Positions 6,029-6,539 of a stretch of DNA of 32,000 nt are shown piece after piece. The DNA is from Methanosphaera stadtmanae (lineage in GTDB: Archaea; Methanobacteriota; Methanobacteria; Methanobacteriales; Methanobacteriaceae): the NCBI GenBank assembly GCA_015062805.1, contig SUTQ01000001.1:126547-158546 (forward strand), in the 5' to 3' direction. Position numbers and translations under genes: made by a program. The first letter of the stretch is position 1. Each line of letters starts with the position of its first letter. The notes under the pieces were generated by a model. That model searched no databases and was not told where the DNA came from. It saw nothing but the letters and a program-made list of their open reading frames with translations.

Positions 6029-6539
6029 TGGTGGAATTTTGATGTTGTCTGTGTTTATATAGTCATCTGGGTTAATTTCTGTAGAAGTAATTTCTTGGTC
6101 TTCTTCTTCGTTTTTAATGGTTTTGACGATTTCATCATTATTTTTAATAGGGGGAATGTTTTTATCTTCTGTATTGTCTTCGATTATTTCATTTGTTTCA
6201 GGTATTATTACTTCATCATCTGTGTTATCTTCGTTATTAATACCATTTTCATTTAAATTATTTATGATAATCCCTCCATTATTTTAAAATTACATTAATA
6301 AGATACTTATTCAATTTTTTCATTCATAATAATTATATTCTTCATACATATTATATCTTTCAATAATATTTTAAGTAACCAAAAGTATTTAAAATCTTTG
6401 TTTTATTAATTTTTTCTTTATCTTAAAATTTTTAAAATATTTGGTCTTTAATCAAACTAAGTTTAAAAACAATATCTTTTTTACAAGTTACTTACATAAA
6501 TAATTCTAAATATTAATAATTATATGGTGGTTAAGCTAG

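Follow-up and report, generated by a model that had tools for sequence, protein, structure and literature searches.

Comparative genomics points to translation of Methanosphaera LonB from a conserved near-cognate AUA or AUU codon

The closest described systems to the case reported here are the weak start codons of bacteria, which include those of Escherichia coli infC and pcnB (AUU) and of Staphylococcus aureus infC, ccpN and citZ (AUA) and cvfC1 (AUU) (PMC13009471). In S. aureus, AUA and AUU behind extended Shine–Dalgarno (SD) sequences yield 10–30% of the reporter output obtained with AUG (PMC13009471). For the archaea, start-codon fidelity has been attributed to aIF1 (PMC8211752), and a review of archaeal initiation gives AUG, GUG and UUG as the only start codons, with AUA and AUU left unmentioned (PMC7531240). 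In ribosome profiling of Haloferax volcanii, near-cognate codons made up about 30% of the sites putatively used for alternative initiation; the study discounted these sites, mostly alternative and not main starts, as potential false positives (PMC7261190), but they suggest that archaeal ribosomes can start at such codons. A literature search for ATA starts in Methanosphaera or Methanobrevibacter, or for AUA starts in archaea, found no report.

We analyzed a window of 32,000 nucleotides from Methanosphaera stadtmanae (contig SUTQ01000001.1, positions 126,547 to 158,546), drawn from a genome of 2.1 Mb in 50 contigs with 29.4% G+C, and compared it within a set of 24 species-level Methanosphaera genomes. 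The nearest database proteins place the window in Methanosphaera and not in Methanobrevibacter, and exact protein identity shows one relative, G018, to be M. stadtmanae DSM 3091. A first-pass annotation of the window, made from the sequence alone, had proposed that the gene for LonB, a membrane protease, starts at a near-cognate ATA and that the protein carries an extension of about 79 residues rich in Asn, Asp and Glu, and the comparison of the 24 genomes lends support to both. On this evidence, we consider it highly probable that Methanosphaera LonB is translated from the AUA at 6265..6263 (from AUU in some species) and not from the AUG at 6028.

The LonB locus and its upstream open frame

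Archaeal LonB is known from, for example, Thermococcus and Archaeoglobus. In a profile search, the translation of the frame scored 948.7 bits against TIGR00764, the NCBIfam LonB profile (equivalog cut-off 516.6), and Pfam LonB_AAA-LID and Lon_C both match it. It carries the Walker A motif GEPGIGKS and the serine motif GDSAS, and a long hydrophobic stretch between Walker A and Walker B, read by eye, corresponds to the membrane insert in the AAA+ module. When the frame is read from stop to stop, its residues 75–672 align to positions 4–607 of the 608 positions of TIGR00764. The Met encoded at 6028 is residue 86 in this numbering, and profile positions 4–14 fall on residues 75–85; conserved family positions therefore lie upstream of this Met, and the last ~11 residues of the extension are within the profile. 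The first-pass annotation had likewise placed the Met inside a conserved LonB block.

The only open reading frame with a canonical start listed at this locus covers 4184..6028 on the minus strand and encodes 614 aa. Its ATG (6028..6026, minus strand, beginning the peptide M-LIDQIIGQ) is the sole canonical start and the one chosen by gene callers. Upstream of it, the frame stays open for 85 codons, as the first-pass annotation had described, up to an in-frame TAA at 6286..6284 (minus strand), and the number of ATG, GTG and TTG codons in this interval is zero. Read from the TAA toward the gene, two AAT codons are followed by GGAGGG (6277..6272), whose SD core GGAGG (6277..6273, minus strand) is complementary to CCUCC at the 3′ end of the 16S rRNA of congeners. 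Then come ATT (6271..6269), ATC (6268..6266) and the proposed start codon ATA (6265..6263), all on the minus strand, in the order that had been noted earlier, with the ATA 7 nt after GGAGG. The frame runs uninterrupted from this ATA through ATG 6028 to the stop at 4184, so that the full coding sequence as proposed occupies 4184..6265 (minus strand) and encodes 693 aa plus the stop. The N-terminal extension (6265..6029, minus strand) comprises 79 codons, of which 23 encode Asp or Glu, 16 Asn, 5 Lys and 15 Ile. At this base composition, an open frame of 80 codons would be expected by chance with a probability of about 1e-3.

No SD-like motif precedes ATG 6028, in agreement with the first reading of the sequence, and the only such motif in the LonB 5′ region is the one at 6277. 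RNA structure over the start site does not exceed chance (z +0.78), and no structure masks the site.

The codon behind the Shine–Dalgarno sequence

The codon lying in frame 7–9 nt from GGAGG is ATA in 12 of the 24 Methanosphaera genomes, ATT in nine, ATG in two and TTG in one, and it never falls outside these four. The spacing is +7 nt, except in four genomes with +8 or +9. An alignment of orthologues, which the first-pass annotation had put forward as a check for an ATG at the position of the ATA, thus recovers canonical codons at this very place: ATG in G014 (at exactly +7) and in G022, and TTG in G019. The neighboring codons at +1, +4 and +10 from GGAGG vary freely across the genus. It should be noted that the genomes are related and the codon counts are consequently not independent, so that changes on a tree give a fairer measure; on a tree inferred from a 600-nt stretch of the conserved LonB core, the start codon changed state at least eight times, always within ATA, ATT, ATG and TTG. 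This genus-wide start, with its repeated switches between ATA, ATT and ATG, provides, on a conserved housekeeping protease, clean comparative evidence for AUA and AUU as main start codons in archaea.

As ATA and ATT both encode Ile, their conservation alone could reflect a conserved Ile residue. In several genomes, however, an in-frame stop is found 0–2 codons before GGAGG (in G013 the sequence reads TAA GGA GGG), which requires LonB to start after the SD; these nearby upstream stops, together with the replacements by ATG and TTG, point to a start codon rather than to a conserved Ile. In this genome, canonical starts are found most commonly 7 nt from GGAGG (59 cases), with 116 at 6–8 nt and 2–3 at 12–13 nt. 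A perfect GGAGG accompanies the canonical start in ~8% of 1,777 coding-like open reading frames of this genome, and it accompanies the near-cognate LonB start in 21 of 21 cases. The 3′ end of the 16S rRNA, which is missing from this draft assembly and was therefore taken from two congeners, reads GGATCACCTCC. A single transition would convert ATA into ATG, yet just two of the 24 genomes carry ATG, a hint of selection or at least of a weak cost.

In two neighboring genera (G+C 0.49 and 0.40), the LonB leader reads GGAGGN ATT TGN ATA NNN ATG. The ATA has the optimal spacing of 7 nt, and that of the ATG, 13 nt, is of background frequency in the genome studied here; in the genus with G+C 0.49, an in-frame TGA stands immediately before the ATA. 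A Methanobacterium-like record has its LonB ATG at +12 from the SD. These spacings may mean either that LonB is poorly initiated across the order or that ATA is the older start. Because the two neighboring genera keep the ATA at 7 nt from the SD, with ATG two codons later, the ATA start of LonB may predate Methanosphaera.

The internal Met at 6028 raises the question of a second product: the AUA would give the long LonB, and AUG 6028 would additionally give a short LonB without the acidic tail and ~11 of the conserved residues. The Met is present in 21 of the 24 genomes, and the three that lack it (G019 with Lys, G005 and G022 with Leu) all have a canonical start upstream; moreover, many genes of archaea are translated in the absence of an SD (PMC7531240). 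Against two starts, ATG 6028 has no SD, G014 retains the internal Met despite having ATG at 7 nt from its SD, and the short form would drop TIGR00764 positions 4–14. LonB proteins of the Methanobacterium type, which have ordinary upstream starts, share the Met as well (P0028–P0031), so that it may simply be inherited, and the pattern of Met loss rests on three lineages, too few for statistics. We regard the additional short form as rather unlikely. The orthologues neither begin uniformly at this residue nor lose conservation ahead of it: Lys or Leu replaces the Met in three species, so that Met 6028 is not a conserved start, and the block EI(D/N)PxxYxDTxxIxIP immediately before it is conserved in 24 of 24 genomes.

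Initiation within the extension at some other near-cognate codon, namely ATT 6271, ATC 6268 or one of the downstream Ile codons of the kind picked by the NCBI pipeline, appears still less probable. The extension does offer 15 Ile codons to choose from, and public records differ in their choice. The LonB of M. stadtmanae is given as 614 aa in GenBank (ABC57605.1) and UniProt (Q2NEZ8) and as 673 aa in RefSeq (WP_083757023.1), and other NCBI entries begin at Ile codons near the EI(D/N)P motif; depending on the pipeline, public Methanosphaera LonB entries are between 612 and about 700 aa long, and none of those examined begins at the conserved SD-spaced codon. The RefSeq model agrees with ours in accepting an ATA start and in including most of the extension. 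It differs in beginning at a second ATA, 4 codons further in, which is 19 nt from GGAGG, a spacing of background frequency, and is not conserved in other species. More generally, the alternative codons lack an SD and are not kept as start-like codons across species, and most of them are preceded by a conserved stretch of peptide; ATT (+1) and ATC (+4) stand too near the SD, and relatives show TTA, AAA, TGT, CCC and other codons at these places. The comparative data thus favor the ATA 4 codons upstream of the RefSeq start. An ATA start is, then, already implicit in RefSeq, and what is new is its conserved position and its spread throughout the genus. A near-cognate start would also account for gene callers trimming about 80 residues off LonB.

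A third reading takes AUG 6028 as the sole start and the open frame above it as an untranslated leader. It follows the only canonical start, as do GenBank and UniProt with their 614 aa and most gene callers, but the leader behaves as coding sequence throughout the genus. The frame between the SD and LIDQIIGQ is open over 45–116 codons in all 24 Methanosphaera genomes; across the 1,847 extension codons, in genomes of ~30% G+C, the two alternative frames contain 143 and 329 stops and the LonB frame none, and the per-genome chance of an open extension ranges from 5e-5 to 6e-2. The residues immediately upstream are conserved and fall inside the family profile, and a second block, of the type IIDDEVIVPE, is found close to the N-terminus in this genome and the rest of its clade. 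Given also that the Met is not conserved and that its ATG is without an SD, we hold an untranslated leader to be very improbable; the comparison indicates that the LonB extension is translated.

Finally, the absence of an ATG might come from faulty sequencing or assembly, the gene might be a pseudogene, or a frameshift might follow initiation at one of the out-of-frame ATGs that stand a few codons past the ATA, at AAT GAA junctions in this genome. All of these have a negligible chance, since the ATA/ATT state is shared by 21 independent assemblies, closed genomes among them (which excludes a base-call error), LonB is intact and far above the TIGR00764 cut-off, and the out-of-frame ATGs are missing in G016 and G007 and soon run into stops, with no conserved slippery site seen; the frameshift was ruled out on these non-conserved ATGs and the stops that follow them.

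Near-cognate starts in other genes

SD-anchored scans of the genome gave no overall excess of ATA or ATT over other AT-rich codons, and a genome-wide relaxed start code was therefore rejected; near-cognate starts would be a trait of particular genes, about half a dozen of them convincing. Besides LonB, four further genes keep ATA, ATT or ATC starts over much or all of the genus, with the reservation that one of them, encoding a 200-aa protein, does so only in the clade of this genome. In three of the four, one or more sister species have ATG at the homologous codon; for the fourth, HycI, none was found in the genomes searched.

The gene for a HycI-type hydrogenase maturation protease (11719..12222, plus strand; TIGR00142, 141.8 bits against a cut-off of 119.1) lies within the window and had been singled out by the first-pass annotation as sharing the pattern of SD and ATA. 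This resemblance holds: the ATA at 11719 directly follows a TAA (11716..11718) and stands behind GGGTGGTGG (11705..11713). The arrangement of ATA directly after a stop is found in 22 of the 24 Methanosphaera genomes; one of the remaining two has ATT, and the other has lost the stop and retained the ATA. The first canonical start is TTG 11833, past the GDDG motif. HycI overlaps the 3′ end of an upstream methyltransferase-like open reading frame by 35 nt, and since its ATA is inside the 3′ end of that gene, the codon is partly constrained by the overlap. The surrounding region (10452–13386, plus strand) encodes a NikR-type regulator, the methyltransferase-like protein, HycI and a putative pseudomurein ATP-grasp ligase (NF053643, 551 bits), an order in which a nickel regulator adjoins a maturation protease for a nickel hydrogenase.

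The other three genes lie outside the window, in the same genome (G000). A QueE-like radical SAM gene (G000 contig C15:125058-125750, plus strand; L133:359-1051) starts at ATT directly after a TAA. Of 23 Methanosphaera genomes, almost every one has ATT or ATC as the start and G022 alone has ATG; the first canonical start is 44 codons in, past the CxxxCxxC cluster motif. The 200-aa protein, which has no family match (G000 contig C11:138453-139052, plus strand; L132:354-953), starts at ATT with GGAGGA at 7 nt. ATT or ATA behind GGAGGA occurs solely in this genome's clade; elsewhere the homologous codon is ATG in seven cases, GTG in one and TTG in one, and in G013 it is apparently ACG. A DUF1616 membrane protein (G000 contig C46:32624-33847, plus strand; L131:325-1548) has ATA behind GGAGGG; ATA is found in most Methanosphaera and ATG in G006. 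The same annotation error that shortens LonB strips the catalytic GDDG from HycI and the iron–sulfur cluster motif from the QueE-like enzyme.

A further observation concerns an adhesin-like protein of 1,120 codons with Big_3_5 domains (G000 contig C17:75763 onward, plus strand; L134:364-). Behind GGGGG, its signal-peptide-like N-terminus opens on ATA ATT, and one has to go as far as the hydrophobic core to reach a canonical start; this gene may be another case of a weak start.

Proposed initiation and comparison with known systems

In the mechanism that we propose for LonB, perfect pairing of GGAGG with CCUCC, 7 nt upstream, would place the 30S subunit at the AUA, and the initiator Met-tRNA would read AUA or AUU by way of a third-position mismatch. 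The product would be a LonB of 693 aa with Met as its first residue. Its first ~68 residues would form a variable, acidic, Asn-rich tail, followed by the conserved LonB N-terminus; the tail is probably disordered. An unusual initiator tRNA was also considered and rejected: one initiator-like tRNA-Met was found, with the usual A1 and G-C-rich anticodon stem, in a tRNA set that is incomplete in this draft assembly (just 22–30 tRNAs are detected by aragorn).

In E. coli, translation initiates very poorly at AUA, and this was counted against an AUA start, as LonB is presumably needed in appreciable amounts. By analogy with the bacterial cases, a weak codon behind a strong SD probably lowers LonB synthesis. 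It may also couple this synthesis to start-codon fidelity through aIF1, as IF3 does for AUU and AUA in bacteria, and it is plausible by the same analogy that the near-cognate start is a selected brake and not merely drift tolerated in an AT-rich genome. Extending this view to the AUA, AUU and AUC starts, behind perfect SDs, of LonB, HycI, the QueE-like enzyme, the DUF1616 protein and the 200-aa protein, as one selected translational brake responsive to aIF1, is a tentative proposal that we think rather doubtful as it stands. If true, the five genes would be the archaeal counterpart of the IF3-sensitive weak starts. The value of the present analysis lies mainly in the correction of the annotation and in a testable case of near-cognate initiation in archaea; it names specific genes for testing aIF1 fidelity and translational control in a methanogen of the human gut.

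As a protein, Methanosphaera LonB resembles the archaeal LonB described by TIGR00764 in being a full-length equivalog, with the AAA+ module and its membrane insert, the LID and Lon_C. It differs in adding the acidic, Asn-rich N-terminal tail, which is 45–116 residues long depending on the species. The LonB of Methanobrevibacter, which carries LLIDQVIGH, has a comparable tail, but its start is an ordinary ATG behind GAGGT.

In its start codon, the gene resembles the bacterial weak starts: a conserved AUA or AUU, optimally spaced from an SD of unusual strength, conservation of the codon across a genus, and truncation by gene callers. The host, in contrast, is an archaeon, in which aIF1, aIF1A and aIF2, and not IF3, are credited with the checking of starts. 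None of the genes concerned (LonB, HycI, the QueE-like gene and the others) encodes a translation factor, so that an autoregulatory loop is not obvious. Compared with the near-cognate sites of H. volcanii, the codon in Methanosphaera would be the one start that a conserved housekeeping gene can use. LonB thus appears, from the comparison of genomes, to be a well-supported archaeal case of a device known mainly from bacteria, the weak start codon behind a strong SD.
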